DNA from: Candidatus Saccharimonadia bacterium
Lineage (GTDB): Bacteria; Patescibacteriota; Saccharimonadia; UBA4664
Length of the DNA stretch: 64,000 nucleotides
NCBI GenBank assembly: GCA_041743505.1
Contig: JBGTMQ010000021.1
Span: forward strand, 64,521-128,520
Reading direction: 5' to 3'
Under the pieces are notes generated by a model. That model did not search any database. It saw nothing but the letters and a program-made list of their open reading frames with translations, and was not told the origin of the DNA. The position numbers and the translations under genes were made by a program. Positions 5,963-54,998 of this stretch are shown in pieces. Within the stretch, counting starts at the first letter, position 1; every line of letters starts with the position of its first letter.

Positions 5963-5987
5963 CACGTTTCTTTGTAGCAATCCCTTG

Positions 5988-6030
5988 CCGGGCAGTCGCC
6001 CGGCAAGGGATTATTTTTGACGGTTTGACT
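5988..6030 (+). terminator. Rho-independent terminator AATCCCTTGCCGGG-cagtcg-CCCGGCAAGGGATT + ATTTTTG
   Basis: 14-bp perfect stem followed by a U-tract. Confidence 0.65.
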
Positions 6031-7560: not shown

Positions 7561-7607
7561 CAAAGACTGTAAAGACGCCCGGCGTCTTTACAGTCTTATT
7601 TTTGTTT
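7561..7607. terminator. Bidirectional terminator AAAGACTGTAAAGACGCC-cg-GGCGTCTTTACAGTCTT + TTTTTGTTT
   Basis: 18-bp perfect stem. Sits between the convergent LuxR (+) and trxB (-) genes. Confidence 0.6.
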
Positions 7608-27624: not shown

Positions 27625-27729
27625 GTTGGGAATATTATACTATGGGAGGATAAGGTCCGGCTTCTGTTTGCGCAAAATGCCCTCGCCGGTCAGACCGGCG
27701 AGGGTTGGTGTTGGCGCTTATGCGCTACA

Positions 27730-34329: not shown

Positions 34330-34869
34330 ATGAGTGGTATGAAGAAAATTGTTGTAGCATCGAAGAATCCCGCGAAACTACAGGCAGCTATGGTTGGCTT
34401 TGAGCGGATGTTTCCGGATGAAGAGTTCGTGGTTGAAGGTGCTGCGGGTGACTCTGGCGTGAGTGACCAGCCTGTTAGTGACGCCGAGACCTGTCAAGGT
34501 GCTTATAACCGGGTGGTTAACGCCAGGAAAGCAGTGCCCGAGGCGGATTATTGGGTAGGTTTAGAAGGCGGGATTGAGGCGCAAGAAGCCGAGATGAAGG
34601 CGTATGCCTGGGTGGTAGTGCAATCGAGGAGTGGCCAGACAGGCAAAGGGAAGACCGGCGTTTATTTTTTACCGTCCAAAGTTGCCAAGCTTGTGCGAGA
34701 CGGCGAAGAGCTTGGCACAGCCAATGATATGGTGTTTGGTACGAGTAATTCGAAACATACGAGCGGGGCGGTCGGTTTATTGACTCATGAGCTTATTGAT
34801 AGGGCGGGATATTATGCCGAGGCCGTAATATTTGCTTTGATACCTTTTAAAAACCCAACGCTGTACTAG
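34330..34869 (+). CDS. yjjX: Non-canonical purine NTP phosphatase (inosine/xanthosine triphosphatase, YjjX family)
   Basis: KNPAKLQA, SGVSDQP, NRVVNARK, PEADYWVGLEGGI, AVIFALIPFKN blocks are collinear with E. coli YjjX as I recall it. Confidence 0.7.
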   Translation: MSGMKKIVVASKNPAKLQAAMVGFERMFPDEEFVVEGAAGDSGVSDQPVSDAETCQGAYNRVVNARKAVPEADYWVGLEGGIEAQEAEMKAYAWVVVQSRSGQTGKGKTGVYFLPSKVAKLVRDGEELGTANDMVFGTSNSKHTSGAVGLLTHELIDRAGYYAEAVIFALIPFKNPTLY

Positions 34870-34940: not shown

Positions 34941-35690
34941 TTAGGGCATGGCAGCAATGCTAGCAACGATCCTATCGAGGTTCTGGCTGGGATTGCCGAG
35001 CGTGATGGGCCGGCCAATCACCAGCCGCGTGGCTCCGGCTGCCAAGGTGGCTTCAGGAGTGTCTGTCCTGGCCTGGTCATCAGGGCGGAAACCAATCGGG
35101 CGGATACCTGGCGTGATGAGGTCAAGCGTGTCGAAACGCCTGTCTGACCGGATTGCGTCAACTTCGGCCGGCGAGCAAATCAAATCCGTGAAGCCGAATT
35201 TGAGCAGCATTTCGGCATAGTAGAGCGTCTGCTTGGCGGTGTTGCGGTCGTTGAACTCGTCGCGGACAATGCGCGCCGCCTTGCTGGTCAATACGGTGAC
35301 GCCACAGGGCTTTGTACCGGCTTCATGGCAAGCATCAGCGAACCGCTTGAGGCAGTCGATCTTGACGGGGTCATCATTGGTCACAAAACCGGTGGACAGT
35401 GCTCCGGCCATGCAGCTGAGCATAAACGGCCGGTGTGCCAGGTGCCTTTGGGTAATTTCGGCGACCTTGGATGGAACTTCGATGATTTTCGCGTCGTCGA
35501 ATACCAGCAGCCCGCGTTCGTTCAGCCGGTCGACGATGCCCAGGCCGGTCTCGGTGACGAATAGGCTGTCGATCTTGACTATGCGCAGGTCAGGCATGCT
35601 GTCGAGGTGGTCCATCAGCGCCGCTTCGTCTGTAACATCGGCGCTCCAAATAACGCGCTCGATGGGTTGGATGGATTGGATGGTAGTCAT
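34941..35690 (-). CDS. Orotidine-5'-phosphate decarboxylase family protein (PyrF-like)
   Basis: GVTVLTS, LITPGIRP, LVIGRPIT blocks and the DxK motif (DDAKIIE). AGGAGG RBS before MTTIQS. Confidence 0.6.
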   Translation of the reverse strand: MTTIQSIQPIERVIWSADVTDEAALMDHLDSMPDLRIVKIDSLFVTETGLGIVDRLNERGLLVFDDAKIIEVPSKVAEITQRHLAHRPFMLSCMAGALSTGFVTNDDPVKIDCLKRFADACHEAGTKPCGVTVLTSKAARIVRDEFNDRNTAKQTLYYAEMLLKFGFTDLICSPAEVDAIRSDRRFDTLDLITPGIRPIGFRPDDQARTDTPEATLAAGATRLVIGRPITLGNPSQNLDRIVASIAAMP

Positions 35691-35839
35691 GTCCGTTCCT
35701 CCTTGCAAACCAGATACGGTCATATTTTAAGGTCCGTTTATCTAGGATACTGATTGTTTTGATCCTCGGCAAACGACAAATGCGTTAAACAACCTAAAAT
35801 CTCGATCGGTTGATCCAGAACTTGGGTTGATGCCCGGCC

Positions 35840-35868
35840 CCCGTGAAGGGGCCGGGCGCTGCTTGAGC
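35840..35868 (-). terminator. Hairpin GCCCGGCCCC-ttcac-GGGGGCCGGGC 3' of the vWA gene
   Basis: 11-bp GC stem right after the vWA stop. No U-tract. Confidence 0.35.
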
Positions 35869-35891: not shown

Positions 35892-36782
35892 TTAGACGAG
35901 CTCGTCGTCGTCGGTAACGGCGGCAGTCGTGACGACGGCCGAGACGTTACGAGCGGCACTGACGCGACTCATAACCGCCATGAGGCGGCGGAACCGGCTG
36001 GCCTGCTCCTTAGGCGTTTCGCCGGGCTTGCGAGCGAAGGCCTGGACCTGCTCGCCGTCGATGCCCAGACCGTTGATGGCGTACTTCTCCAGTTCGGAGA
36101 GTTCGTTCGGCCGGTGACGCTTGACCGACAGGCCCCACTCGGTCTCAAAGTAGAAGAACACGTAGCGTACGCGAGTCTTGTCGCGTCCGGTGATGATCTG
36201 CCTGACGCCACTTGGGTCGGTTGGAGCGCCATTGTTGGCACCATCCGATAGGATCACGATATCGACGTCAACGTCCATACCGATTTCTGCCTGGAGGTCA
36301 CCCGCATAGCGAAATGCCTGTGCGGAGCCCTCCGTGATGGCCCGGTGCAAATCGGTACCATTGCCCCAAGCCGGGTTGTAGTCTCCGGTAGTGATCTGGG
36401 GGAGCTGGTCGAACGGGTGGAAGTAAGACTCGTTGCCATCGGCATCGGTTCCCTTCCAGATTGGCACGGGTGAGCCGCTACTGAAGGCAACGCCACCAAC
36501 GCGCAAGGCGCTGATGTCGTCCTCGCGCGCTGCGGTGACGGCGGGCACGAAGTCCTCGTTAAACCCATTGCGCAATGCAGCGGCGACCGGGTCCATCGAC
36601 GGCGAAGCGTCGAGGATGAAGTACACGACACGCATGCCGCCGCCCGACATCATTTCGTCGGTGGTGAGGGCAGTGCCCTGGACAATCGGTGCTGCGATTT
36701 GAAATGCTGCGTGTACGACTGCATCTGAGGCATCGGGGTCCTGGAAAAACGAAGCAATCTCGGGGCTAACTGAACTGGCCAT
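35892..36782 (-). CDS. von Willebrand factor A domain protein (TerY-like)
   Basis: MIDAS DxSxS (VVYFILDASPSMD). Later T and D ligands (DIVILSDGANNG). AAGGGAG RBS before ATG (MASSVSP). Confidence 0.7.
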   Translation of the reverse strand: MASSVSPEIASFFQDPDASDAVVHAAFQIAAPIVQGTALTTDEMMSGGGMRVVYFILDASPSMDPVAAALRNGFNEDFVPAVTAAREDDISALRVGGVAFSSGSPVPIWKGTDADGNESYFHPFDQLPQITTGDYNPAWGNGTDLHRAITEGSAQAFRYAGDLQAEIGMDVDVDIVILSDGANNGAPTDPSGVRQIITGRDKTRVRYVFFYFETEWGLSVKRHRPNELSELEKYAINGLGIDGEQVQAFARKPGETPKEQASRFRRLMAVMSRVSAARNVSAVVTTAAVTDDDELV

Positions 36783-36874
36783 TTGAAGCACTCCCTTGCT
36801 TTTGGGGTGGGTTTTCGGGGGTAGGGAGCCTGCCTGCGGCCGGGCTGGCCGCAGGCAGGCTAGTCAACAACGAG

Positions 36875-38002
36875 TTACGCTGCGGCCTGGAACTTCGCGT
36901 CGTGGGTGATGAAGCGCACACCCTTGGCTTCAGCCTCAGCATAAAACTTCACCACGTGCGGAGCGTCCGGAACGATAGCCGCTGTGCAGTCGGTGACGAA
37001 GGCCAACTTCTCGAGGAGCCGGGCGTTGGTGTTGTCGAAGTACCGTACTGCCTGCTGCTCTGTGTGGTAGTTGCAGAAGTCTTCGGTAACACCCACGAAG
37101 TCGCTCGTGCCTTTCACTTGGCCGAACAGATCAACGATGGTCTTCTGGAAGCCGCCTTGCGGATGAGTAGAATCTGGACGGCAGGGCTGGAATGCGCCGA
37201 ACCAGTCCGTATCGCGAATGTGCCCCTTGAACAGTGGCACCGGCTCCAGCATACGAGCGCCCTCCATGAACGCAAGCGTCTCGGATAGCAGCGGGTGCAG
37301 ATTGGTGCCGTCGGTGCCGATTTTGCAGTGCATGGCGAAAACCCAAACGGGGCCTTGGCCGGTGCCTTGCAGATGGTGCCAGTACTTAACCGTGTCGTCG
37401 GCATTGAACATTGACTTGATGTGGCCCATGTCGATTGGCCCGTTGGGACCAAAGCACGTAGCCTTGAAGATGCCACGACGCTCATCGGCCAGATCTAGCA
37501 CGGCTGCTTTGTGCTCGCGCAGGTCAAACGGCAGGCCATCCTCGGCCCACCAACGCGACCCGAAGCTGAGGTGCAGCGGCGGGTGGCTGTCCTGAGAGTG
37601 CACAGCCAGCGTGTAATGGTCGAGAATGGTACCGTTGATAGCTCGCACACAGGCGCGAAGCACGGCGGTGTCGGTGCCGTTAACTCCCAGTCTGCCGCCC
37701 TCGCGGAAGTCATCCTGGAGGTCGGTGAACATGATGGCGTTGGAGATGCCAAGTTCAATCAGCTGGGCTGCTGTTCGCAGCTTGTTGTTCTTGCGGTAAG
37801 CAACGCCCTCGCGGAAGGCAGTCTCAACGTCAGGGCGGTACCGGATGTAGGCCTTACGTGGGTCCCAAAACTCGGGGGTGTAGAGCAGCGGCGCGTGAGA
37901 CGCCACAGTTACACCAGCCGGAAGGGTCAGGTCGATTGCAGTAGACACGTTCTTTCTCCTTTTGCCATCATAACCGGATGGAACAGAGGGGGGGTAGTAC
38001 AA
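36875..38002 (-). CDS. Long-form nicotinamidase/isochorismatase-family hydrolase (PncA-like) with ~85-aa N-terminal extension
   Basis: FTDLQDDFREGG...SQDSHPPLHLSF...FAMHCKIGTDGTNLHPLL...GVTEDFCNYHT is collinear with PncA catalytic D/K/C and the metal-binding D-H-H-H blocks. TTG start at 38002, or GTG at 37948 with an AGGAG RBS. Confidence 0.6.
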   Translation of the reverse strand: MYYPPSVPSGYDGKRRKNVSTAIDLTLPAGVTVASHAPLLYTPEFWDPRKAYIRYRPDVETAFREGVAYRKNNKLRTAAQLIELGISNAIMFTDLQDDFREGGRLGVNGTDTAVLRACVRAINGTILDHYTLAVHSQDSHPPLHLSFGSRWWAEDGLPFDLREHKAAVLDLADERRGIFKATCFGPNGPIDMGHIKSMFNADDTVKYWHHLQGTGQGPVWVFAMHCKIGTDGTNLHPLLSETLAFMEGARMLEPVPLFKGHIRDTDWFGAFQPCRPDSTHPQGGFQKTIVDLFGQVKGTSDFVGVTEDFCNYHTEQQAVRYFDNTNARLLEKLAFVTDCTAAIVPDAPHVVKFYAEAEAKGVRFITHDAKFQAAA

Positions 38003-38018
38003 GGGGCCAGGGTGGCCC

Positions 38019-40001
38019 CTATTTCTTGCTTGTCATGGTCAAAATGCCACTGCGACGCACGATGCCAACACGTCCGTTTACACGGATGAGCTGGTCATCG
38101 ATGGACACCTTACCCGTGGTATCGGCGAGCGTGGTGCAGCTGCCATCGGACAGTTGCTGCTTCACAATGCCGCTTGGGGTGGCGTGCAGGATGCTCTTGC
38201 CCTGGTACAATTTGCCACGCAGGTTGGACCAGGGCTCATAGCTTGGGTCGGACTGGCCGATGGTTTGGTTCTGGTGAATTTTTCCATCGAGCCCGATGAC
38301 TGCGTAGCGCACGTAGTCGCGCCCATTGAAGGACGTCTGCATGACCAGGAGCACTGAGCTTTTACTGAAGTAAACGGCGAAGTCTTCCACCGTTTCTCCG
38401 GTGCGGATGCCCAGATCGCCAACCTTGTGGTACTGGTAGCGGCTACCCTTGGCGTTGCCGTGGATAATGAACCACTCCCAGTTGCGAAGCGCCCGGTCGT
38501 AACCGAAGATTACTTCGCGGTCGGCATTGGTGGCATGGTCGGCCGTGAACCAGCTCTGACGCTGGTGCACTTCGGCCACTGGTTCGTCAAAGACGACGCC
38601 GGCCGGACCGAACAGGTCGCTGCGCACTAATGTGTTGCCAGCGACACGGTACAAGAACCGGGAGGTTGTGTCGAACACAGCGGTTTCGCCTTCGAGTACT
38701 CCCGTAGCAGTACCCTGCAGGCGACGCAAATTGCTGCCTTCGATCCGGTAAAGCTCCAGCACGGCCGGTGCCGGCTGGCTTGGGTTCGGACAGACAACCA
38801 GGCAATTCTTGAAGAACCGGTAGCGCGCGCCGGGAATGCTGGGGAGTTCCGGGGAAAGAATCGTGCTTGCCCCATGCTCATCAATGCGGACTACCTGCAC
38901 CGTGCCACCGAGACGGCAGACCAGGTACAGATCTTTTTCGACGAGTTGAGCAAACAGAAGTACTCCCTGAGTTTTGAACAACTCCTCGATGAGGAAGCTG
39001 GTCAACACAGGCACCTGCACCAACGTGATTTCCTGACACTTCGGACATTGCCGGCGCGAGGTGTGGTATTCGGCGCCGCATTTCTTGCACCCGGTGACTT
39101 CGAGCGCGAACGCGCGAAGCATGTCCGGATCCAGCGGTGAGTCAACCCGGCGCTTGAGCCGCTCCACGAGAGCGTGAAGCACCTCGTCGCTGAGCATTTC
39201 GGGCGCGCCGATCATGGCCGGGAAAGTGACGCCAGGATCGTAGATGGTGAGTCCGGCATTTGCCCGGTTCTGGATGCCTTTTACTGTGGGATGTGTCCCC
39301 ATTTTGAACGGATGCGCCCCCGGAATCGCCATCAACGAGAAAGCGACTAGAAAGGCAAACCGGTCGTGGTGAGGCCGGGCCGAAACGTGGGTGCCATTTT
39401 CCTCCAGATTAGGATACAGATCCGGATGGGCAAACAGCTCCGTAGTTGCTAAGCATGGAAATCCGGGAAAGCCCCAACTACCAGTGTCGACCCAGACGCG
39501 ACTGCCGTCGGGTTGGAACATGACGCAACCAAGGTTAACGTCGCCAACCACCAGGCCTTTGCCGTGTAATAAGCCGAGATCATCGAAGAGGTCGGCGAAG
39601 AGCTGTGCAATCATGCGCAAGCCAACTTGATGACTGGTACGGAATGATCCGTCCAGGAGCATCTTGAGCTTGTGATAGCTGGCCGGAATGCGGCGCATTT
39701 GAAAGCCAACCGCGCGGCGTCCGGTTGGGTCGAACACGGGGAGCATGGGAAGCGTGAATTGGGGCGGCAGGGCAAGCCCCTGGCTACAGATAGCCTGGAT
39801 TTTTTTAGAGTGATAGGCTGCGTTACCCGCGGCCTTCTTGTCTCCGGGATCAGCCGGGTGCAAGAGCTTGACACAGAGGGCGGGATCACGCGGATGGGCA
39901 ATGACCATGCCCTCGGAACCGGCGCCGAGCTTGGTTTGGAGGTCGACCTGGTAGGTGACTCCGCCAAGCATGTAGCGGTCAGTTGTAGGTGGTTTGTTCA
40001 T
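38019..40001 (-). CDS. Ser/Thr protein kinase-like protein with Zn-ribbon and ~330-aa uncharacterised C-terminal domain
   Basis: Gly loop LGAGSEG, catalytic Lys (CVKLL), HRD-like LVVGDVNLGCV, DFG-like DTGSWG. C-x2-C...C-x2-C ribbon (CKKCGAEY...CPKCQ). ATGA overlap with the PP2C stop. GGAGG RBS. Confidence 0.65.
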   Translation of the reverse strand: MNKPPTTDRYMLGGVTYQVDLQTKLGAGSEGMVIAHPRDPALCVKLLHPADPGDKKAAGNAAYHSKKIQAICSQGLALPPQFTLPMLPVFDPTGRRAVGFQMRRIPASYHKLKMLLDGSFRTSHQVGLRMIAQLFADLFDDLGLLHGKGLVVGDVNLGCVMFQPDGSRVWVDTGSWGFPGFPCLATTELFAHPDLYPNLEENGTHVSARPHHDRFAFLVAFSLMAIPGAHPFKMGTHPTVKGIQNRANAGLTIYDPGVTFPAMIGAPEMLSDEVLHALVERLKRRVDSPLDPDMLRAFALEVTGCKKCGAEYHTSRRQCPKCQEITLVQVPVLTSFLIEELFKTQGVLLFAQLVEKDLYLVCRLGGTVQVVRIDEHGASTILSPELPSIPGARYRFFKNCLVVCPNPSQPAPAVLELYRIEGSNLRRLQGTATGVLEGETAVFDTTSRFLYRVAGNTLVRSDLFGPAGVVFDEPVAEVHQRQSWFTADHATNADREVIFGYDRALRNWEWFIIHGNAKGSRYQYHKVGDLGIRTGETVEDFAVYFSKSSVLLVMQTSFNGRDYVRYAVIGLDGKIHQNQTIGQSDPSYEPWSNLRGKLYQGKSILHATPSGIVKQQLSDGSCTTLADTTGKVSIDDQLIRVNGRVGIVRRSGILTMTSKK

Positions 40002-40804
40002 GACGTACCTCCGTCGATACGCTCCATTGCAATAACGCCACAGTCATCGCCCATATATTCGCCAAACTCCTTGCGGAGCAGGTTGAGCAGATACTGCAAG
40101 CCCATTGGATTGTTTGGCGCATGGCTGAACAACCGGTCGGGCAACCCAATGTTGGGCAGGCCGAGCAATTCTTCGATACCATCGGTCGCCAATGCGATTC
40201 GCTGGATTTCGGCTGACGGGTAGTTTGCAGTGTCAAATCCGCCACCAATGGCAGGATAAGCCGGCCGGTCATTCTGGTCGACGATGTGAATATCATCATT
40301 AATGATGATGACACCGTCGCCGGCCTGGAATGTGACCAGATCCTCGCCGTCATCAACGAACCCGATTATCGTGGCTGCCAAGTAGTCGGTCGTAAACCGT
40401 TGCGTGGCATTCAGCTCGTTACGGAATTCGTTTGCGCCCTTGAGCTTTACAATCAGCGGCCAATGGATATTGGACGGCATGACTGTGCTGGCGAGGTTAC
40501 GCAGAAAGTTGATGACGGCGTGGTACAAAGGCAGCGGAATTTCCGCCATCTTGGCACCGCCGACGATCAACTCCTGAATGTGTGCCAGGCAAAACACGAC
40601 CAATAGGTTCGAGCCGACTTCACTATGAGTGAATGCCGGAATACCACTACAACCGTCTGATGCCAACCCTATCCGGTAGTTCTTGCCCCGTTTGGGGATA
40701 CTAAACTCCTGATACAGGACGGCATCCTGGTTGTTGGTGCCGTGCTGGATGTGTTTGACGCCCTGTATGGTGCCCGACCTCAAGCGGTATGCTGGGCTAG
40801 TCAT
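39998..40804 (-). CDS. PP2C-family Ser/Thr protein phosphatase
   Basis: GTNNQDAV (motif 1 Asp), ASDGCSG (metal-binding DG), C-terminal GDDCGVIAM (DDxT-like). Confidence 0.75.
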   Translation of the reverse strand: MTSPAYRLRSGTIQGVKHIQHGTNNQDAVLYQEFSIPKRGKNYRIGLASDGCSGIPAFTHSEVGSNLLVVFCLAHIQELIVGGAKMAEIPLPLYHAVINFLRNLASTVMPSNIHWPLIVKLKGANEFRNELNATQRFTTDYLAATIIGFVDDGEDLVTFQAGDGVIIINDDIHIVDQNDRPAYPAIGGGFDTANYPSAEIQRIALATDGIEELLGLPNIGLPDRLFSHAPNNPMGLQYLLNLLRKEFGEYMGDDCGVIAMERIDGGTS

Positions 40805-40848
40805 TGCGCCCTACCCTTCTTCTCGATTTGTCAACGATCGTGCTGGAC

Positions 40849-40877
40849 ACCATACTATCTGAAATGACGTTTGTAAA
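40849..40877 (-). promoter_or_regulatory. Candidate promoter TTTACA-N17-TATGGT for the PP2C-kinase-PncA-vWA operon
   Basis: Read on the minus strand in the divergent intergenic region. About 45-nt leader to the PP2C ATG. Confidence 0.25.
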
Positions 40878-40921
40878 GCCAAGCGTCTGTTATTTGTATA
40901 TAAAGCTGTCAAAGTTCATTC

Positions 40922-41000
40922 GTTAGCGTAGAACATACACTAACAAAATCAATGTATACCAGTGTTTGTGTATTGTCAACACTAACTTATAGCGCTATAA
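40922..41000. promoter_or_regulatory. Candidate NrtR operators: GTTAGCGTA-gaac-ATACACTAAC (40922..40944), direct ACACTAAC repeats, and perfect palindrome TTATAGCGCTATAA (40987..41000) overlapping the nrtR -10
   Basis: Palindromic elements in the divergent intergenic region, one coincident with the promoter -10. Confidence 0.3.
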
Positions 41001-41001
41001 T
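40973..41001 (+). promoter_or_regulatory. Near-consensus sigma70 promoter TTGTCA-N17-TATAAT for nrtR, with a leaderless-type start
   Basis: -35 at 40973..40978 and -10 at 40996..41001. The ATG at 41008 is only 7 nt downstream of the -10. Confidence 0.5.
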
Positions 41002-41007
41002 GCTCTT

Positions 41008-41685
41008 ATGAATTCTTTACGCCCAGGCTTAGCACAAATCCGGCTGACCGTAGACGTCGTTATTTTTACGATTGATAACAATGAACTTAAACTTCTCTTG
41101 ATTGAGCGGGTTGGCGAGCCGTTTATTGGCCAGGCCGCACTTCCGGGAGGTTTTTTATGGGAGGGCGAATCAACGGAGGAGGCGGCCCGGCGGGTATTAA
41201 AAGATAAGGCAGGTGTGAGCGGGACGTATCTTGAGCAACTGTATACGTTTGATAAGCCGGGCCGTGACCCGCGTGGCCAGATTATCAGTGTGACGTACTT
41301 TACGCTGGTGCCTAGTGAGGCGCTGCGACTAGAGCCCAGCGGCACAACCCAGCGGCCCCATTTGCAGCCGCTTGATGGTCTCCCACAGTTGGCGTTTGAC
41401 CACAACGAGATTGTAGATTATGCCATGAACCGTTTGAGATCCAAGCTTGAATATACCAATGTGGCTTATTCGCTGTTGCCGTCGGTGTTTACGTTTGCCC
41501 AGCTACAGCAGGCTTACGAGATTATTTTGGGGCAGATGTTGGACCGCCGGAATTTCCGCAAGAAATTTATGTCACTGGGCCTGATTAAGCCGACGGGGGT
41601 TCACCAAGAAGGTGGCCGGCACCGTCCCGCTGAATTGTATACGTTTGTGTCGCGGCAGCCTTCGGAACTCGAGCGGTGGTTTTGA
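41008..41685 (+). CDS. nrtR: NrtR-family Nudix-related transcriptional regulator of NAD metabolism
   Basis: N-terminal Nudix box GGFLWEGESTEEAARRVLKDKAG. C-terminal wHTH with the NrtR signature (FTFAQLQQAYEIILGQMLDRRNFRKKF). Confidence 0.7.
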   Translation: MNSLRPGLAQIRLTVDVVIFTIDNNELKLLLIERVGEPFIGQAALPGGFLWEGESTEEAARRVLKDKAGVSGTYLEQLYTFDKPGRDPRGQIISVTYFTLVPSEALRLEPSGTTQRPHLQPLDGLPQLAFDHNEIVDYAMNRLRSKLEYTNVAYSLLPSVFTFAQLQQAYEIILGQMLDRRNFRKKFMSLGLIKPTGVHQEGGRHRPAELYTFVSRQPSELERWF

Positions 41686-41720
41686 TTAAAAATACCCGCT
41701 AGCCACATTCGGCTAGCGGG
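41686..41720. terminator. Bidirectional terminator CCCGCTAGCC-acattc-GGCTAGCGGG (T-tract on minus side)
   Basis: 10-bp perfect stem between the convergent nrtR and the small minus-strand gene. Confidence 0.55.
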
Positions 41721-42579: not shown

Positions 42580-42879
42580 AGTGCCTCTCCACTCTGTCTA
42601 CTTTTGGGGGAGCTATCCCGGATTCCGCCGGGACAACGGTTATTTATAATGCCATAAGTGATATATTAATGCAATGATCTTTCTGCAAAAAGGGCAGGTA
42701 GTTTGGTGTGGTGGCCAAACTACCTGCTGTGTTAATCCCCTGTTCTACGCGGTAATTTTGAAGGCAGTTCCCGCGGCGAATGTGCGCGGTACTTATTTTA
42801 CGATGCAGCTGTGTTTCGTCAACATGATGCCTAAAGCCTATCCTGAGGCTTCAATCGAAATTGAAATCTCGGGATAGGC

Positions 42880-48107: not shown

Positions 48108-48831
48108 GTTTCACCCCTATTTTCCGGCGTCTGGCGGCATTTTGCTCGGTAGTGTCGGTGAGGAGGCCGTCTTTAATTTCTAGTTGTTGGGTACTAAAGC
48201 TCAGATAATCGAGGTTGTGGGTCACGAGAATGACGGTTTTACCCTGCTCTTTGACGCTCCGTTCGAGCAGGCCCATGATGAGCTCGCCGTTTCGGGAATC
48301 TAGATTGCCGGTGGGCTCATCGGCCACGATAACACGGGGGCTGGCAATAAGTGCGCGGGCCATGGAGACACGCTGTTGCTGCCCGCCCGAAAGTTGCGTT
48401 GGGTTGTGGGCCGAAATATTGCCGAGGCCGACCTGCTCGAGCCGCAACTGGGCGAGACTAGTGGCCTGCTGCCGGTCGTAGCCCGCTAGATAGAGCGGGA
48501 AGGAAACATTTTCGATGACATTGAGGCTACTAACCCAGTAGTTGGTTTGGTTGACCATGCCGAGGGTGAGCTGGCGGAACCGCGCCCGATCGTCCGGAGT
48601 GAGCTGGTAAAGGTCCTGTCCGAGCATGTCCACGGTTCCGCTAGTGGGAGGTTCGAGGCCGACAATGGTGTTGAGCAAGGTCGATTTACCTGAGCCGGAC
48701 GGTCCGTAGATGATGGCAAAAGCGCCCTCTTTGATTTCAAAGTTTACGTCGATGAGCGCCTTGACCGTCTCGGTGGCCAGGTCGAATTGTTTATGTAGAT
48801 TGGTGATTTTGAGAAGGGTTTTACTGCTCAT
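48100..48831 (-). CDS. ABC transporter ATP-binding protein (FtsE/MacB-like)
   Basis: Walker A GPSGSGKST, signature LSGGQQQRV, Walker B VIVADEPTGNLD. 4-nt overlap with the giant gene stop. Confidence 0.85.
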   Translation of the reverse strand: MSSKTLLKITNLHKQFDLATETVKALIDVNFEIKEGAFAIIYGPSGSGKSTLLNTIVGLEPPTSGTVDMLGQDLYQLTPDDRARFRQLTLGMVNQTNYWVSSLNVIENVSFPLYLAGYDRQQATSLAQLRLEQVGLGNISAHNPTQLSGGQQQRVSMARALIASPRVIVADEPTGNLDSRNGELIMGLLERSVKEQGKTVILVTHNLDYLSFSTQQLEIKDGLLTDTTEQNAARRRKIGVKHG

Positions 48832-51800
48832 TTGAGGAATCCAAATATGTTTGACAGGGCATTGAAGATGATGCTGAGAACGCTTTCGGTGCCCCGCCCG
48901 ATGATGGTGGACTGATCGGTGGAGCTACCTTCATTGCCGGCGCGGTCGCGGGAGATGGCCTTGAGATGGAAAACGGTGGAAGTGGGTAAATCGGAAATAA
49001 TAACCACGTGGTCGTAGGTGTAATTTTGGTCTTCGGCGGTTTTGGTGCTGTAGCTGTCGCCGGACGAGCCTTGATTGAAGGCGACCTGGCTGGCGGCTGG
49101 CTCGTCGGTCTTCCAGCTAACCACCATCTGGCCGCGGGCGTCTGAGCCAGTGCCCTTGATGCTGGATTCTATGGTGACTCGCGAGACTTTGGGTGGGCGG
49201 GTGTCGAGGGCGGTGCGGAAGACTTGTTGATCGGAAACGGCCAGATTGCCGCTGCCGTCACGCGAGGAGGCGGTGAGAATGTATTCGCTATTATCGACGA
49301 GGTCGCTAATGGTGATCTGGTGGTCGGTGGTGAGCTTGGATTCGCTGACCTCCAACTGTTTTTGGCCGCGGGGCCCGTACTGGAGGCCGGAGGTGGCGGG
49401 CACATTGGTGGTCCAGGAGACAAGCTGAGTGTTCGTGGGGGCTCCGGCGACCGGCTGGAAGCGCAGGTCCGAGATACGGGGCCGGGCCGGGGTGGTAAAG
49501 GTGAAGATACTGGAATTGTACTCATTGCCATCGGCATCGAAGGTGTTGATTTTGTAGAAGTATTTAGTCCCGTCATCGAGGTTAGTGAGTTGGGCGGTAT
49601 AGGAAGATTCGGCGGTGGAGGTGTTGAGAATCTGGACGCCGCCAAAACTGTCGGTCTTGCCAAAGTAAATCTTGGTGCTGGTGGCGTCTTTGGAGGTGAA
49701 ATGAATGGAAGTACTGGTAAGCCCGACGGACGGATTGGTGACTTCTTTGATGAGGGGGGCCGGCGCCGTGGTGAAGCTAAACTCATCGGAGCTGCCCAGG
49801 TTGCCGTCTTCGTCGATCCATTTGGCTTTGGCAAAGTAGAGTGTACCGGGAGACAAGTTGGTGAGATTGATGGTGTGAGCTGTCACCTGGTTGGAATTGG
49901 CGACTTCATCGCTGGAGTAATTGCCGCTGGAGGTACCAAGCGCGATGCGCGAGTCACTGGCGCGGTTGGTGACCCAGCTAATGGTGGCGCGGCGGGTGGT
50001 GACATTTTGCACGGCCACCTGGTTGAGCAGGCCGGCCGGGCTGGTGAAGCGGCCGGTAGGCAGCTTGGAGACTGAGTTAGAGGCTACGCCACAGTTATTG
50101 GCTGAGTCACAGGCTTTGATTTTGTAGTAGTACGTGATTTGACTGAGGCCGCTGTCGACCAGGCTGGTGGCGCTGGTGGTGGCGACGACGCTAAAGTTGA
50201 CGTTGTCGGTGGAGCGGAAGACGCGGTAGGTGGCCACGCCGGCGCCCGGATTGGTGGGTGGTTCCCAGGTGAGAGCCAGGCGCCAGTTGGCGGTGGATTT
50301 GATGGAGGCGTCGACGACGTCCGGGTTGAGCGGCATACCCGGGGCGGAGGTATTGGCCGTGAAGATGACACTAGCTGCAGTGGCGTAGTTAATGTTGCCG
50401 GCCTCATCTTTGGCTACAACATAGAACGTGTTATCGCCGGGCTGGGTGGCGTAGGGTCCGGCAGTAATGTTGGTAACGCCGGCAGCGGTGAAGGTGCAGT
50501 TGGAGACGGTGGGTGTGGCATTGACGGTGTAGCAGTAGGTGAGGTTGGCGGCTTGCCCGGCAAATGAGGCCGGAGCCACCCAGTTGAAGCTAAATGAGTT
50601 GGTGGTGTTGGTAGTGGGGATGGCGGCGAGGTTTTGAGGTGAGCTCGGTGAACTGGTATTAATTTTAAGCGCAGTGGTGACATAGACGGGTGAGACATTA
50701 CCGGCCAGATCCCAGGTGCGGAAGTAAATGGTGTTGTTGCCCTCAATGAGGTTGGCAAAGTCCGGGGTATTTTGGGTGGTATAGGACCCATCGTTGGCGA
50801 GCAGGTCGGTGGCGTCCTGAGTGCCGAAGTGGTTGTCCCCATACCAGGGGCTGGAGGCGCCAATGCGATACTGGAGGCCGGCCACACCAGAGTTGGCGTC
50901 GCTGGCGGCATCACTGCCACTGGTTTGCCAGGTGAGCGTGGCGGTTTTGGTGGCAATGAAGTTTGATGGGGCCGTGATGAAGGCCGGATTGGTGGGCGTG
51001 GTGTTATCGAAGCGGAACTGGAAGTTGGTGCTGGTGCTTGAGACAGCATTGCCGGCCCGGTCGATGGCGGTGACGTAGAGGTAGTAGGGATTGTTTGATG
51101 ACGTGAGCGCACTGGCAAGGTAGCCGCTGGTAGCCAGGTCCACGCTGTCGCCCGGCACAATGAACTGGCACGGCGTACCGGTGGTGGCCAATGGCGAGTT
51201 ACCAAGGATACCTTTGGTGCTGGTCGGGTCGGAGCCGGCTGTTTGACCGAGGTACAGGCAGTAACCGTAGATGCCAGCGCCAGCGTCGGAGCCGGCGGTC
51301 CAGCTGAAGTACGGCGAGCCGCCGTTGGTCCAGTCATTTGAGGCCACGGTGGGCCCACCGGCCGACTTGTACATGACGGCCGCGGTGGCGTTGGTTTCGG
51401 GTGGGGTTATGTCAGTGATGCCGGAAACGGTGACTGAGTCCAAGGTAACCCGTTGTGTGCCGTCACCTTGGGCGATAGCCTGCCATTTGATACCACCACC
51501 CATGACTACGGGGAACGTGGCGATGTTGCTGTTGATGACTGCGGCGGAGTTGGTTTGGGTGGTGTCGGCCGATACAACCCAGGCACTGCCGCTCCAGTAT
51601 TTCCACGTAGTGCCATTATCGGTCGAGAGGCGGTAGTTGATACTGCCTCCACCCAGTGTGGAACTGTCGCTAAAGGCGCTCCAGCTGGCAACGCCAGTGC
51701 CGAGGACGGCGCTGAGCGGGCTGACGGCGAGCGGAGCATTGGAGTAGGGTTTGGTGGTAAAGCTACTGCGGGCAGAGTCGCTGATGCGAACTTCGTCGAG

Positions 51801-54800
51801 TGAGCCGGCAAAGTAGCCCTGAGCCACGCCGGCCTGGGCGGCGCCAAAGGTGGTGCCGAGCAGAAGCGGCTGGCTGGTATTGGGCAGTGACAGCGAGGCG
51901 GAAGTGGAAGCATTGAGCGTGCCATCAATGTATAACTTCATGGTACCGCCGTCATAAGTGGCCGCCAGGTGATGCCAGCTGGTATTCTGGCCGACGGTGG
52001 CCGACTGCAAGAAGCCGTTGTTGCCATAGGACCAGATGGCGGCGTCGACGTTGGCTGAGTCGCCCAGGCCGGCGTAGAGTTTGCCGCGATAGGTGGTCAT
52101 GGCGCGGACTGTTTCGGTAGCATTGACGGCCCAGCTGCCATTCATGGCGTCGCCGCCGATTTGGGTCCAGGCGCCATTGTCGTATTGCCAGACCTCGCCA
52201 TCGCTGGCGGTGTTGGCCAGTCCCGCGTAGAGTCCGCCGTTGTAAACCGACAAGCCCTTGGCTTGCTCGTATTGGCCGTCGATCCAGCTACCGCCTATGG
52301 CGTCGCCGCCGATTTGCGACCAGGCCGTGCCATTCCACTCCCAGATTTCGGCGTCTGCGGTGGTGTTACCGAGGCCGGCGTAGAGTTTGCCATTGTAGGC
52401 TTGAAGAGATTCTACCTGCTCGTAGACGGTATTCCAGCTGCTGTTTAGGCCATCGCCGCCGATCTTGGTCCAGGTGGCTCCACCCCATCGCCAGACTTCG
52501 GCGTCGGTGGCGCTGGCGCCCAGCCCAACGTGGAGCTGTCCGCCGAAGACGGTCATGGAGCTGACGCGCTCAAAGCCGGCCGCCCAGCCGCTGTTTAGGC
52601 TGTCGCCGCCGATCTTGGTCCAGGCCGTGCCGTTCCAACGCCAGACTTCGGCGTCGCCCGCAGTATTACCGAGGCCGGCGTAGAGATTGCCACCAAAGGT
52701 AGCGAGCGAATAGACTTCCTCGTATCCGGCGGCCCAGCCGCTGTTTAGGCTATCGCCGCCAATTTGGGTCCAGGCAGTGCCGTTGTAGCGCCAGACTTCG
52801 GCGTCCCCGGCGGTAGTGCCCAGGCCGACATACAAATTCCCACCATAGCTGGTCATGCTGAGAACGTTTTCGAAGGTATTAACCGCCCAGCTGGAGTTAA
52901 TCCCCTGCCCGCCCACAAGCGCCCATGATGTGCCGTCAAAGCGCCAGACTTGGGCGTTGCCGGCCACGGTATTACCGAGACCGGCGTACAGATAGTCGCC
53001 CGAGACGGTCATACTTTCAACATCTTGAAGATTGAAAAAGCCCCAGCTTTTATTGACGTAGCCGCCGCCCATCCGCGTCCAGGACGTACCGTTGTAGGTC
53101 CAGATTTCGGCGTTGTTGCCGGCCGCGGTTAGGCCGGCGTAGAGGGTGCTGCCCGTATAAAGCAGAGACTGCACAATAGTATGCGTGTTGGTGAAGCCGC
53201 TATTTAACCCATCGCCGCCAATTTGGGTCCAAGCCGTGCCGTTGTAGCGCCAGACTTCATTGTCGCCGGCAGTATTGCCTAGGCCGGCGTAAACGTTGGT
53301 GCCATCGTCGGTTAAGGCGTAAACCCCTTCATAGTTGGTGTTCCAGCTACTATTTAAGCCGTCGCCGCCAATTTGGGTCCAAGCCGTGCCGTTGTAACGC
53401 CAGACTTCGGCGTCGGTGGTGCTGAGGCCGATGCCGGCGTAGAGATCACTGCCGAGCCAGCGCAGACTCTGGACGGTCTCGTAGGTCACATCTGCCCAGC
53501 TGGAGTTGACGGCATCACCGCCGATTTTGGTCCAGGCCGGTGTGGTGCCACAGTTGCCGCAGCGCCAGACCTCGGCGTCCCCGGCGGTAAGCCCTAGGCC
53601 GGCGTAAATGTTGGTGCCGTCTGTCGCCAGAGACGGGACGATTTCGTAGTTGGTGGTCCAGCCGCTAGCCAGGCTGTCGCCGCCAACTTTGGTCCAGGCA
53701 CTGCCATTCCAGCGCCAGACTTCGGCGTCGTTGGCCGAGCTGCCGATGCCGGCGTACAAGTTAGAGCCCATCACGACCATACTGGTGACTTCCTCATAGG
53801 TGTTGACGACCCAGCTGCTGTTAATGCCGTCGCCGCCGATCTTGGTCCAGCTGGAACAGCCAGTGGAGGTGTCACAGCTCCAGACTTCGGCATCCCCGGC
53901 ACTGGAACCCAGCCCGGCGTAAAGCGTGTTGCCATTGGCGGCTAGTGACAGGACATTTTCGAACGTTTGGTCGGACCAGCTGGAGTTCTTGCCGTCGCCG
54001 CCGATTTGGGTCCAGGTGGACCCATCCCATTTCCAGACCTCAGCATCAGCCACGGCATTGCCTAACGCGGCATAGACGTTGCCGCCGATAGCAACCTGGG
54101 CGTTGACAGATAACTTACCGTTTAGGTCCCAGCTACTCTTGACGTCGTTGCCGGCTTGTTGAGTCCAGTTGGTGGCTGCGGAATTAGCCAGCTCATACGT
54201 GACCTTGCCGGTTTCCTGGTCGTAATACAGCTTGTAGGAGCCCTTGTCGATGACACCCTGCTGATGGTCGTGGCTGGTGTCCGAGAACGTGCCCGCGAAT
54301 TTGGTCCAGGCCTCCAGGGTATTGTCCTGGTCCAATGAGAGTGAGGCAGAATCTGTGGCCGATACTTGATCGCTGGTTCCGTTAAGCGTGAGGCCGTTGT
54401 TTAAGTTACCGAGGCCGAACGTGCCGCCGGTGACTGCACCCGTGTTGCTATTGGTTGAGGAATCGGCGGCGCTACCACCGCCGGCTTCATCCAGGTGGTA
54501 GAGGGCTTCGGTGGCGGCATCAGGGGTGTAGTTTTGAGCTTTATGACGGACGCTGGTACCACTAACCTCGAGGGCGCTGTCGATGGAGAAATTGCTGGGT
54601 GTAGTGAAGTCCCAAGTATGGGATGAGTCAGCAAAGATAGCGTGGTGCAGGCCGCTCACAAAGAAAATACCAATGATGTAGGCTGTGAGGGCGGCGTAAT
54701 GCACCCGATGATGGTGACGATGGTTATGCCAGCGATCATACCAGTCAAACTGACGACGGAGGTGCTGATGCGGACGGGCGGCAAGATGGTGGTGGGCTGT

Positions 54801-54998
54801 GCGAAGGTGCGTTGCGGCCTGACCGGCGACGGACATGACGGCGGCCAAGCCACCTACTAGACGCGGCCGCACTGTTGACATGGCACGGCTAGCCCATCGC
54901 TGGACATAGGCTACACCGCGCCTTACCAGCACTGACCTAGCGGTTGCGCTACGGCGTCGTGCGGCTTTGTTTGCTCCTCCTAGTTTCGACCGGGCCAT
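48828..54998 (-). CDS. Giant (2056 aa) signal-anchored surface protein: LamG/ConA-like, ~15-17 propeller-like tandem repeats, second LamG, multiple Fn3/Ig-like domains
   Basis: Basic cytoplasmic N-terminus then a TM. LamG_3-like blocks (W.HLAATYDG..MKLYIDG...SLDEVRISD). ~50-aa repeats (LYAGLGNTAGDAEVWRYNGTAWTQIGGDGLNSSW...). C-terminal Fn3-like modules. Confidence 0.8.
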   Translation of the reverse strand: MARSKLGGANKAARRRSATARSVLVRRGVAYVQRWASRAMSTVRPRLVGGLAAVMSVAGQAATHLRTAHHHLAARPHQHLRRQFDWYDRWHNHRHHHRVHYAALTAYIIGIFFVSGLHHAIFADSSHTWDFTTPSNFSIDSALEVSGTSVRHKAQNYTPDAATEALYHLDEAGGGSAADSSTNSNTGAVTGGTFGLGNLNNGLTLNGTSDQVSATDSASLSLDQDNTLEAWTKFAGTFSDTSHDHQQGVIDKGSYKLYYDQETGKVTYELANSAATNWTQQAGNDVKSSWDLNGKLSVNAQVAIGGNVYAALGNAVADAEVWKWDGSTWTQIGGDGKNSSWSDQTFENVLSLAANGNTLYAGLGSSAGDAEVWSCDTSTGCSSWTKIGGDGINSSWVVNTYEEVTSMVVMGSNLYAGIGSSANDAEVWRWNGSAWTKVGGDSLASGWTTNYEIVPSLATDGTNIYAGLGLTAGDAEVWRCGNCGTTPAWTKIGGDAVNSSWADVTYETVQSLRWLGSDLYAGIGLSTTDAEVWRYNGTAWTQIGGDGLNSSWNTNYEGVYALTDDGTNVYAGLGNTAGDNEVWRYNGTAWTQIGGDGLNSGFTNTHTIVQSLLYTGSTLYAGLTAAGNNAEIWTYNGTSWTRMGGGYVNKSWGFFNLQDVESMTVSGDYLYAGLGNTVAGNAQVWRFDGTSWALVGGQGINSSWAVNTFENVLSMTSYGGNLYVGLGTTAGDAEVWRYNGTAWTQIGGDSLNSGWAAGYEEVYSLATFGGNLYAGLGNTAGDAEVWRWNGTAWTKIGGDSLNSGWAAGFERVSSMTVFGGQLHVGLGASATDAEVWRWGGATWTKIGGDGLNSSWNTVYEQVESLQAYNGKLYAGLGNTTADAEIWEWNGTAWSQIGGDAIGGSWIDGQYEQAKGLSVYNGGLYAGLANTASDGEVWQYDNGAWTQIGGDAMNGSWAVNATETVRAMTTYRGKLYAGLGDSANVDAAIWSYGNNGFLQSATVGQNTSWHHLAATYDGGTMKLYIDGTLNASTSASLSLPNTSQPLLLGTTFGAAQAGVAQGYFAGSLDEVRISDSARSSFTTKPYSNAPLAVSPLSAVLGTGVASWSAFSDSSTLGGGSINYRLSTDNGTTWKYWSGSAWVVSADTTQTNSAAVINSNIATFPVVMGGGIKWQAIAQGDGTQRVTLDSVTVSGITDITPPETNATAAVMYKSAGGPTVASNDWTNGGSPYFSWTAGSDAGAGIYGYCLYLGQTAGSDPTSTKGILGNSPLATTGTPCQFIVPGDSVDLATSGYLASALTSSNNPYYLYVTAIDRAGNAVSSTSTNFQFRFDNTTPTNPAFITAPSNFIATKTATLTWQTSGSDAASDANSGVAGLQYRIGASSPWYGDNHFGTQDATDLLANDGSYTTQNTPDFANLIEGNNTIYFRTWDLAGNVSPVYVTTALKINTSSPSSPQNLAAIPTTNTTNSFSFNWVAPASFAGQAANLTYCYTVNATPTVSNCTFTAAGVTNITAGPYATQPGDNTFYVVAKDEAGNINYATAASVIFTANTSAPGMPLNPDVVDASIKSTANWRLALTWEPPTNPGAGVATYRVFRSTDNVNFSVVATTSATSLVDSGLSQITYYYKIKACDSANNCGVASNSVSKLPTGRFTSPAGLLNQVAVQNVTTRRATISWVTNRASDSRIALGTSSGNYSSDEVANSNQVTAHTINLTNLSPGTLYFAKAKWIDEDGNLGSSDEFSFTTAPAPLIKEVTNPSVGLTSTSIHFTSKDATSTKIYFGKTDSFGGVQILNTSTAESSYTAQLTNLDDGTKYFYKINTFDADGNEYNSSIFTFTTPARPRISDLRFQPVAGAPTNTQLVSWTTNVPATSGLQYGPRGQKQLEVSESKLTTDHQITISDLVDNSEYILTASSRDGSGNLAVSDQQVFRTALDTRPPKVSRVTIESSIKGTGSDARGQMVVSWKTDEPAASQVAFNQGSSGDSYSTKTAEDQNYTYDHVVIISDLPTSTVFHLKAISRDRAGNEGSSTDQSTIIGRGTESVLSIIFNALSNIFGFLK
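51950..54150 (-). repeat. Nucleotide-level tandem repeats (~150-156 bp units) encoding the propeller-like blades
   Basis: Recurring near-identical strings, e.g. gtcgccgccgatttgggtccaagccgtgccgttgtagcgccagacttc at ~53211 and ~53361. Confidence 0.6.

Follow-up and report, generated by a model that had tools for sequence, protein, structure and literature searches.

A candidate nicotinamide salvage operon of Patescibacteria combining a long-form nicotinamidase with a TerY-P/YegI-type phosphorylation triad

Genes of the cassette and their products

We analysed a stretch of 64,000 nucleotides from a genome of Candidatus Saccharimonadia (contig JBGTMQ010000021.1, positions 64,521 to 128,520), hereafter called the window; coordinates are counted from its first letter. 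Four genes occupy the minus strand at 35892-40804, and a divergent gene lies on the plus strand at 41008-41685; all five open reading frames (ORFs) are present at these coordinates in the ORF listing of the window. The products of the minus-strand genes, in the order of transcription, are a PP2C phosphatase, a YegI-like Ser/Thr kinase with a Zn-ribbon and a β-propeller, a long-form nicotinamidase (the PncA-like protein), and a vWA protein with a metal ion-dependent adhesion site (MIDAS). Together these four genes are called the cassette, and the phosphatase, kinase and vWA protein form a triad of the TerY-P type. The divergent gene encodes the regulator NrtR. The embedding of a nicotinamidase gene in such a triad recurs in Patescibacteria, and candidate NrtR operators are found upstream of the cassette in a number of lineages. 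Only the PP2C and NrtR assignments pass the Pfam thresholds. The other three (kinase, PncA-like protein, vWA protein) fall below them and were settled by family profiles, AlphaFold models (AF2), fold search with Foldseek, and hhalign.

The PncA-like gene (36875..37948, minus strand) encodes a protein of 357 amino acids (aa), counted from a revised GTG start. Library profiles recognise it poorly: no match to Pfam Isochorismatase was observed even at E <= 10, and the match to the NCBIfam PncA model, considered below, is partial and sub-threshold. Nevertheless, the original assignment to nicotinamidases is upheld by the family profile and by the fold. The profile of 28 PncA-like homologues retrieved only nicotinamidases from PDB, with 2wt9 as the best match (E 2.6e-8). 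In the alignment with 2wt9, the Asp of DLQxDF, the metal block D-x-H-x3-H, the His of the 'HC' pair and the Cys of DFC are all paired. The catalytic residues D76, K241 and C292 and the metal site D120/H122/H126/H207 are invariant in the 28 sequences. The AF2 model has a mean predicted local distance difference test score (pLDDT) of 94.4, and the top 11 Foldseek matches to it in PDB are all nicotinamidases (E 1e-11 to 1e-8); the matched nicotinamidases come from Acinetobacter, yeast, Leishmania, M. tuberculosis, Drosophila and Pyrococcus. Judging by the alignment and the model, this is a nicotinamidase-family enzyme with intact catalytic and metal-binding residues.

The isochorismatase-like fold, the Asp-Lys-Cys triad, the Asp/His metal site and the DFC motif are common to this protein and the classical nicotinamidases of A. 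baumannii (2wta), yeast (Pnc1, 2h0r/3v8e) and M. tuberculosis (PncA, 3pl1). However, the classical enzymes have about 180-235 aa, whereas the window protein carries in addition an N-terminal helical extension of about 65 aa and an inserted β-subdomain of about 70 aa, and the identity is only 13-19%. Unlike them, it scores below the curated cut-offs of hidden Markov models (HMMs), and its family was found only inside kinase/vWA cassettes wherever the context could be inspected. By an exhaustive HMM search, the long-form family has few members (28 representatives at E <= 1e-30), and there is a gradual transition from it to ordinary nicotinamidase-like proteins of about 300 aa. Some lineages have one more N-terminal domain of about 240 aa, which brings the total length to 554-607 aa (proteins P0032, P0033, P0035, P0092, P0095, P0104, P0108). 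This domain is 55% identical between two of the genomic contexts described below (L005 10001-10750 and L021 10981-11727), and it has no match in Pfam or NCBIfam.

The phosphatase gene (39998..40804, minus strand) encodes a PP2C-type Ser/Thr phosphatase of 268 aa that matches Pfam PP2C_2 (PF13672) with E 2.5e-11, above the gathering score. Its metal-binding Asp motifs D27, D50-G51, D163-G164, D208-G209 and D253-D254 are invariant in nine orthologues.

The kinase gene (38019..40001, minus strand; 660 aa) yielded no significant match in Pfam, with weak Zn-ribbon matches among the sub-threshold ones, and PDB searches with the kinase and vWA proteins, both by single sequence and by profile, produced marginal matches. 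The AF2 model of the kinase (pLDDT 85.6) consists of an N-terminal protein-kinase fold, a Zn-ribbon and a C-terminal β-propeller of seven-blade-like appearance. Foldseek relates it to Aurora and BRAF kinases (TMt ~0.64) and to the propeller of the clathrin terminal domain (E 6e-9). The comparison of the kinase family with E. coli YegI by hhalign is highly significant (probability 98.1, E 1.1e-13, residues 21-255), and the similarity ends at the kinase domain. Residues K45 and D154 align with the catalytic K39 and D141 of YegI, a characterised Hanks-type kinase in which these positions were defined experimentally (10.1101/819920). The positions G26/G28, K45, D154, N156 and D172 and the Zn-ribbon cysteines C305/C308/C319/C322 (CxxC-x10-CxxC) are invariant in 35 sequences, in agreement with the initial description of a Hanks-type kinase with a Zn-ribbon. 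The C-terminal 330 aa had been described as a domain of unknown nature; they are modelled as a soluble β-propeller, and not as the membrane-anchored region reported for YegI.

The vWA gene (35892..36782, minus strand) encodes 296 aa from a revised ATG start. The MIDAS positions D61xS63xS65, T146 and D183 are invariant in an alignment of seven family members. The window protein matches Pfam VWA with E 0.083 only; five of the seven members match this family, the best one with E 4.4e-6. The hhalign comparison of the vWA family with E. coli YegL is weak (E 0.073, probability <1%), though the MIDAS blocks align. All vWA orthologues end with a conserved acidic-hydrophobic tail [DE][DE][DE][LIF][VI]-COOH that follows an Ala/Val/Thr-rich linker (35892-35925 in the window). 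This tail resembles a short docking peptide, possibly for the clathrin-terminal-domain-like β-propeller of the kinase or for a MIDAS site.

The cassette genes are tightly packed. The PP2C and kinase genes overlap by 4 nt (ATGA), exactly as originally predicted, and their translational coupling is clear. The distance of 16 nt given initially between the kinase and PncA-like genes presupposes a TTG start at 38002. However, the GTG codon at 37948 is preceded by AAAGGAG, the identical database protein P0001 (100%) has 357 aa, and the family alignment starts at the same position; hence the distance is really 70 nt. For the vWA gene, ATG 36782 is the most likely start, which leaves a gap of 92 nt to pncA, as compared to about 90 nt in the original prediction. 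The intergenic region between nrtR and the PP2C gene has 203 nt.

Conservation and genomic context of the cassette

Genomic contexts were gathered by exact-protein look-ups of homologues of the PncA-like and kinase proteins and by a kinase-profile scan of species-representative genomes, and all five window proteins were mapped onto every locus by tblastn. Merging of duplicates left 19 independent contexts (denoted by L numbers), 18 of which cover the kinase-PncA-vWA position and 17 of which have adequate flanks. They come from metagenome-assembled genomes (MAGs) of Saccharimonadales, Saccharibacteria, Peribacteria, Adlerbacteria, Parcubacteria and Pacebacteria.

The order PP2C-kinase-PncA-vWA on the same strand, with PncA between the kinase and the vWA protein, is observed in all 18 covering contexts. 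The cassette identities across contexts are 35-68%, and the order is retained down to about 35% identity in PncA and about 27-30% in the C-terminal region of the kinase (L023, L024). The flanks are unrelated and contain largely housekeeping genes, such as Mur ligases, FolD, G6PD, a ribosomal protein operon, SecY and RecG. Thus the adjacency seen in the window is not a one-off, and the arrangement is far beyond chance.

Two contexts deviate from the rest in other respects. The contig L019 (CAYYDP010000057.1, 5.9 kb) carries NrtR, PP2C and kinase genes with two near-perfect operators and is binned in a MAG labelled 'Gammaproteobacteria'; this is probably a binning error, as all other carriers are Patescibacteria. 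In the Peribacteria MAG L014 (4737-5730), which is counted among the 18, an internal deletion has left PncA (query residues 24-297) followed almost immediately by the final 50 or so residues of vWA. The latter cassette has the appearance of a copy in decay; nadD and an ADP-ribosylglycohydrolase (ARH) gene still follow it.

NrtR and/or another gene of NAD metabolism is situated beside the cassette in 12 of the 17 contexts with adequate flanks, and the recurrent partners are PncB, NadD, NadE and ARH. The most complete arrangement, on one strand, was found in the Patescibacteria MAG L010: NrtR-PP2C-Kin-PncA-vWA-NadD-like-ARH-PncB-NDT(Nuc_deoxyri_tr2)-NadE, where NadE is NAD synthase. In L005 the kinase and PncA genes are separated by a divergent gene of PncB, nicotinate phosphoribosyltransferase (NCBIfam NAPRTase, E 8e-23). 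PncB and/or NadD adjoin the cassette in L014, L015, L016, L017 and L021. A search of the 64-kb window for pncB, nadD, nadE, ARH and a udk-like kinase yielded none of these genes.

Some further genes accompany the cassette. The ARH gene and the gene of a 430-aa Nuc_deoxyri_tr2-family protein in L010 (12813-13862 and 15083-16375) are located amid nadD, pncB and nadE, and their homologues also occur close to the cassette of L014 and L015. Their products may provide extra salvage steps releasing nicotinamide or ADP-ribose. A gene of the uridine-kinase/PRK family (udk model E ~1e-21, under the cut-off) is immediately downstream of nrtR in L002 (16941-17837), and a gene of the same type directly follows the cassette in L003 (12180-13082), L004 and L013. 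It could encode a nucleoside kinase, perhaps for nicotinamide riboside, tied to the same regulon.

NrtR, its candidate operators and the hairpins of the cassette

The nrtR gene (41008..41685, plus strand) encodes a Nudix-related transcriptional regulator. Both the N-terminal Nudix-like domain (NUDIX PF00293, E 3.4e-12) and the C-terminal winged helix (NrtR_WHD PF21906, E 4.2e-23) are present, and thus the gene named in the original prediction is a genuine member of the NrtR family; the NCBIfam NrtR model matches with E 4.9e-44, under the equivalog cut-off. The Nudix box, GGFLWEGESTEEAARRVLKDKAGV, is degenerate, with REUxEE replaced by RVLKDK in the window translation. Such a box fits a regulator rather than a hydrolase, and is typical of non-catalytic NrtR proteins.

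Most NrtR operators are 21-bp palindromes with the core GT-N7-AC that overlap promoters (Rodionov et al. 2008, PMC2330246). The palindrome TTAGTGT-N7-ACACTAA with at most two mismatches occurs twice in the 64 kb, as compared to the expected 0.05, and both sites are in the region between nrtR and the PP2C gene. Site 1, TTAGCGTAGAACATACACTAA (40923..40943), is just downstream of the predicted cassette promoter, at the predicted transcript start. Site 2, TTTGTGTATTGTCAACACTAA (40965..40985), covers the -35 hexamers of both predicted divergent promoters. These promoters were found by consensus scan only: that of nrtR at 40973..41001 on the plus strand (TTGTCA-17-TATAAT, 11/12), and that of PP2C-kinase-pncA(-vWA) at 40951..40979 on the minus strand (TTGACA-17-TACATT, 10/12). 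The candidate sites fit the published operator class and overlap the predicted promoters.

The described NrtR regulons include nrtR<>pncA-pncB and nrtR-pncA-pncB-nadD-nadE (PMC2330246). As in the window, a regulator with Nudix and winged helix-turn-helix domains is encoded beside pncA, and a 21-bp GT-N7-AC palindrome overlies the promoters. On the other hand, the first two genes of the window operon encode a phosphatase and a kinase, and the last one a vWA protein; none of these is listed for the published regulons, which do not cover the Candidate Phyla Radiation (CPR).

An NrtR gene was found in the fetched flanks of eight of the 17 contexts with sufficiently long flanks, where it is divergent, upstream and co-directional, or a few kb downstream. 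In all eight the palindrome with at most two mismatches is present upstream of PP2C, including L002, where nrtR is 5 kb off. Sites homologous to site 1 were observed upstream of PP2C in L002, L006/7, L008, L010, L016, L019 and L021. The proposed link between NrtR and the cassette is supported by the two operator-type palindromes of the window and by the recurrence of this association in independent lineages; in about half of the contexts, NrtR is absent from the flanks. Comparative genomics thus supports transcriptional control by NrtR.

The original prediction treated the four genes as one transcript. In this genome the claim is weakened by a perfect GC hairpin with a 15-bp stem that separates pncA from the vWA gene (36827..36861, minus strand; -37 kcal/mol, z -6.7), which is terminator- or attenuator-like and has no U tail. 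It belongs to the same class as the gene-end hairpins elsewhere in the window. In a window-wide scan no more than ten such stems were found, the majority shortly after ORF 3' ends, including one after nrtR, and therefore the hairpins resemble terminator-type signals without U-tails. Perfect GC-rich stem-loops of 9-16 bp, mostly lacking U-tails, are found at 620-645, 5979-6012, 7563-7597, 27680-27704, 35832-35857, 36827-36861, 41695-41720 and 42694-42727. This distribution suggests that the organism uses such hairpins as terminators or mRNA-end signals. Within the cassette, an 8-bp GC hairpin, also with no U tail, directly follows the kinase stop codon (38002..38020, minus strand; -14.9 kcal/mol, z -2.4), and another GC hairpin follows the vWA gene at the cassette end (35832..35857, minus strand; -41.6 kcal/mol for the region, z -6.0).

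The interval of about 44 nt from the pncA-vWA hairpin to the vWA start leaves no room for a promoter, and thus the vWA gene is probably expressed by partial read-through. In this genome the hairpin probably lowers the expression of vWA relative to the three upstream genes. It is not a conserved feature, as the gap between pncA and vWA is only about 24 nt in L002 and L003.

Proposed function and alternative explanations

The most likely function of the cassette is regulated Preiss-Handler salvage of NAD. With moderate confidence, we suggest that it is a salvage operon repressed by NrtR and probably induced by ADP-ribose, in which a TerY-P/YegI-type phospho-switch is built around the divergent long-form PncA and gates it. 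By analogy with established NrtR biology, NrtR would repress both nrtR and the cassette; ADP-ribose, a by-product of NAD cleavage, would release NrtR and so turn the operon on while NAD is being consumed; and PncA would convert nicotinamide into nicotinate for NAD resynthesis. The remaining steps are suggested by gene order: phosphate groups might be added to PncA and/or the vWA protein by the kinase and removed by PP2C, docking or sensing might be the task of the vWA MIDAS and the β-propeller, and the salvage flux or free nicotinamide might thereby be gated post-translationally. It is a more tentative proposal that in CPR a TerY-P/YegI-type triad was taken over specifically for controlling nicotinamidase at the post-translational level, with ADP-ribose inducing transcription of the whole unit.

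Several considerations weigh against this reading. Firstly, in nine of the 17 contexts (L003, L005, L009, L011, L014, L015, L017, L020, L022) there is neither NrtR in the flanks nor the palindrome upstream of PP2C, and therefore NrtR control, which is frequent and has good support from the comparison of contexts, is not intrinsic to the cassette and is rather an accessory feature. Secondly, members of the NrtR family can sense other ligands (e.g. AraR), and thus the responsiveness to ADP-ribose is assumed here; that ADP-ribose is the ligand is inferred from the family. Thirdly, post-translational gating of PncA by the kinase, PP2C and vWA proteins is purely an inference from the strict conservation of gene order. 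Fourthly, because of the strong hairpin after pncA, vWA could be expressed separately from the genes before it. Finally, the match to the NCBIfam PncA model NF008623 (E 4.5e-8) spans residues 88-151 only and has 33 bits against the cut-off of 174; given this score, the N-terminal extension and the β-insertion, the substrate of the PncA-like protein could differ.

One alternative is that the triad is a general switch with targets elsewhere (cell envelope, host contact, stress), and that pncA is merely co-transcribed, being neither a substrate nor a partner. Operons of vWA, STK (Ser/Thr kinase) and PP2C genes with other roles do exist, for example yegL-pphC-yegI of E. coli (10.1101/819920) and a DNA-damage operon of Deinococcus, and a direct interaction between the triad and PncA is a prediction only. 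The E. coli locus yegL-pphC-(yegJ)-yegI is related specifically in the kinase domain, and its other partners are also a PP2C_2-family phosphatase and a vWA protein. However, the window kinase is soluble in the model and contains the Zn-ribbon and the β-propeller, in contrast to the reported membrane-anchored C-terminal region of YegI; the similarity of the window PP2C and vWA proteins to PphC and YegL is weak by hhalign; and the E. coli locus has no nicotinamidase. Moreover, the triad is interrupted by pncA, placed after the kinase gene and before the vWA gene, in all contexts, even at identities of only about 35%, and the long-form PncA was found only in such cassettes among the contexts that could be inspected. 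Such conservation of order is typical of physically or functionally coupled products, which makes an unrelated general switch unlikely.

Another alternative is related to phage defence. The TerY-P triad was reportedly described by Anantharaman, Iyer and Aravind in 2012, and TerY-P-like defence systems are said to have been reported by Gao in 2020. In this reading the cassette could be an anti-phage or NAD-depletion defence or self-rescue module, with the nicotinamidase as the effector or recovery arm, induced by the ADP-ribose that firing NADase immune effectors produce. TerY-P is defined as a TerY-like vWA protein, PP2C, and a Ser/Thr kinase with a C-terminal Zn-ribbon, and its relatives act as stand-alone defence systems (PMC11090510). 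The original comparison with this triad is supported: a vWA protein with MIDAS, PP2C and a Zn-ribbon kinase are encoded in a tight co-directional cluster in the window. The logic of NrtR and ADP-ribose would also suit an alarm for NAD cleavage (PMC2330246), and the distribution of the cassette across CPR classes is patchy, with variable flanks.

However, the window-type cassette differs from TerY-P in several respects. TerY-P is a contiguous three-gene unit, whereas here the nicotinamidase separates the kinase and vWA genes in 18 of 18 contexts; the kinase has an additional C-terminal β-propeller, and the order is PP2C-kinase-(PncA)-vWA. The cassette is restricted to Patescibacteria and keeps company with NAD biosynthesis genes and NrtR, and not with restriction, Ter or defence genes. 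No gene of TIR/SIR2 or other NADase, nuclease or defence protein was observed in any context flank, and there is no defence island nearby; housekeeping genes (ribosomal proteins, Mur ligases, SecY, RecG) surround the cassette, and the recurrent companions are the ordinary NAD-biosynthesis genes pncB, nadD and nadE. PADLOC yielded no match for any cassette member or family, but the same library did not recognise the YegL/PphC/YegI control of E. coli as TerY-P either, and thus this negative result is uninformative and is not evidence against defence. The cassette has no similarity to phage records. Hence the defence role offered in the original prediction acquired no positive support and seems quite unlikely.

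A phage or plasmid origin of the region was rejected in the same analysis: megablast of 20 kb against phage records produced no match, and tblastn with the PncA-like protein only two remote matches. In PHROGs only the Nudix protein has a match.

Least probable is the explanation that the PncA-like protein acts on another amide (nicotinamide mononucleotide, nicotinamide riboside or another pyridine carboxamide) and that the cassette processes a different, possibly host-derived metabolite: the sub-threshold match to curated PncA models, the extension of about 65 aa, the β-insertion of about 70 aa and the further domain of about 240 aa in some lineages would agree with it, but conservation is complete at the metal site by which nicotinamidases are told apart from other isochorismatase-like hydrolases, the 11 best structural matches are without exception nicotinamidases, and the repeated adjacency to PncB, which consumes nicotinate, fits the canonical reaction.

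TerY-P-like triads are widespread beside defence and stress systems. The present variant, always with PncA and often with NrtR, offers a concrete and testable hypothesis about what a TerY-P/YegI-type switch acts on; a switch known mainly from phage-defence and stress loci is suggested here to control the salvage of vitamin B3. If this is true, such a triad could for the first time be assigned an enzyme that it works with and a physiological signal that it responds to, and NAD homeostasis would gain a new layer in obligate epibionts unable to make NAD de novo. For Patescibacteria, regulated nicotinamide salvage would then be an important function kept in very small genomes. The observations would also extend the NrtR regulon to signalling proteins, and they define a distinct long-form subfamily of nicotinamidases missed by standard HMMs. 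A literature search, whose coverage did not include the original TerY-P paper, produced no paper in which NrtR or nicotinamidase is linked with Patescibacteria, and none on a nicotinamidase in connection with TerY-type triads.

An Rfam scan of the window revealed a single tRNA and no riboswitch. Directly downstream of the cassette are a gene of the OMP-decarboxylase/HUMPS family (34941-35723, minus strand) and a gene of the NTPase_I-T (ITP/XTPase) family (34330-34869, plus strand). They are probably unrelated neighbours, as their adjacency to the cassette is not conserved in other genomes. Elsewhere in the window, an ORF of 2056 aa (48828-54998, minus strand) is situated within a region of strong GC skew.

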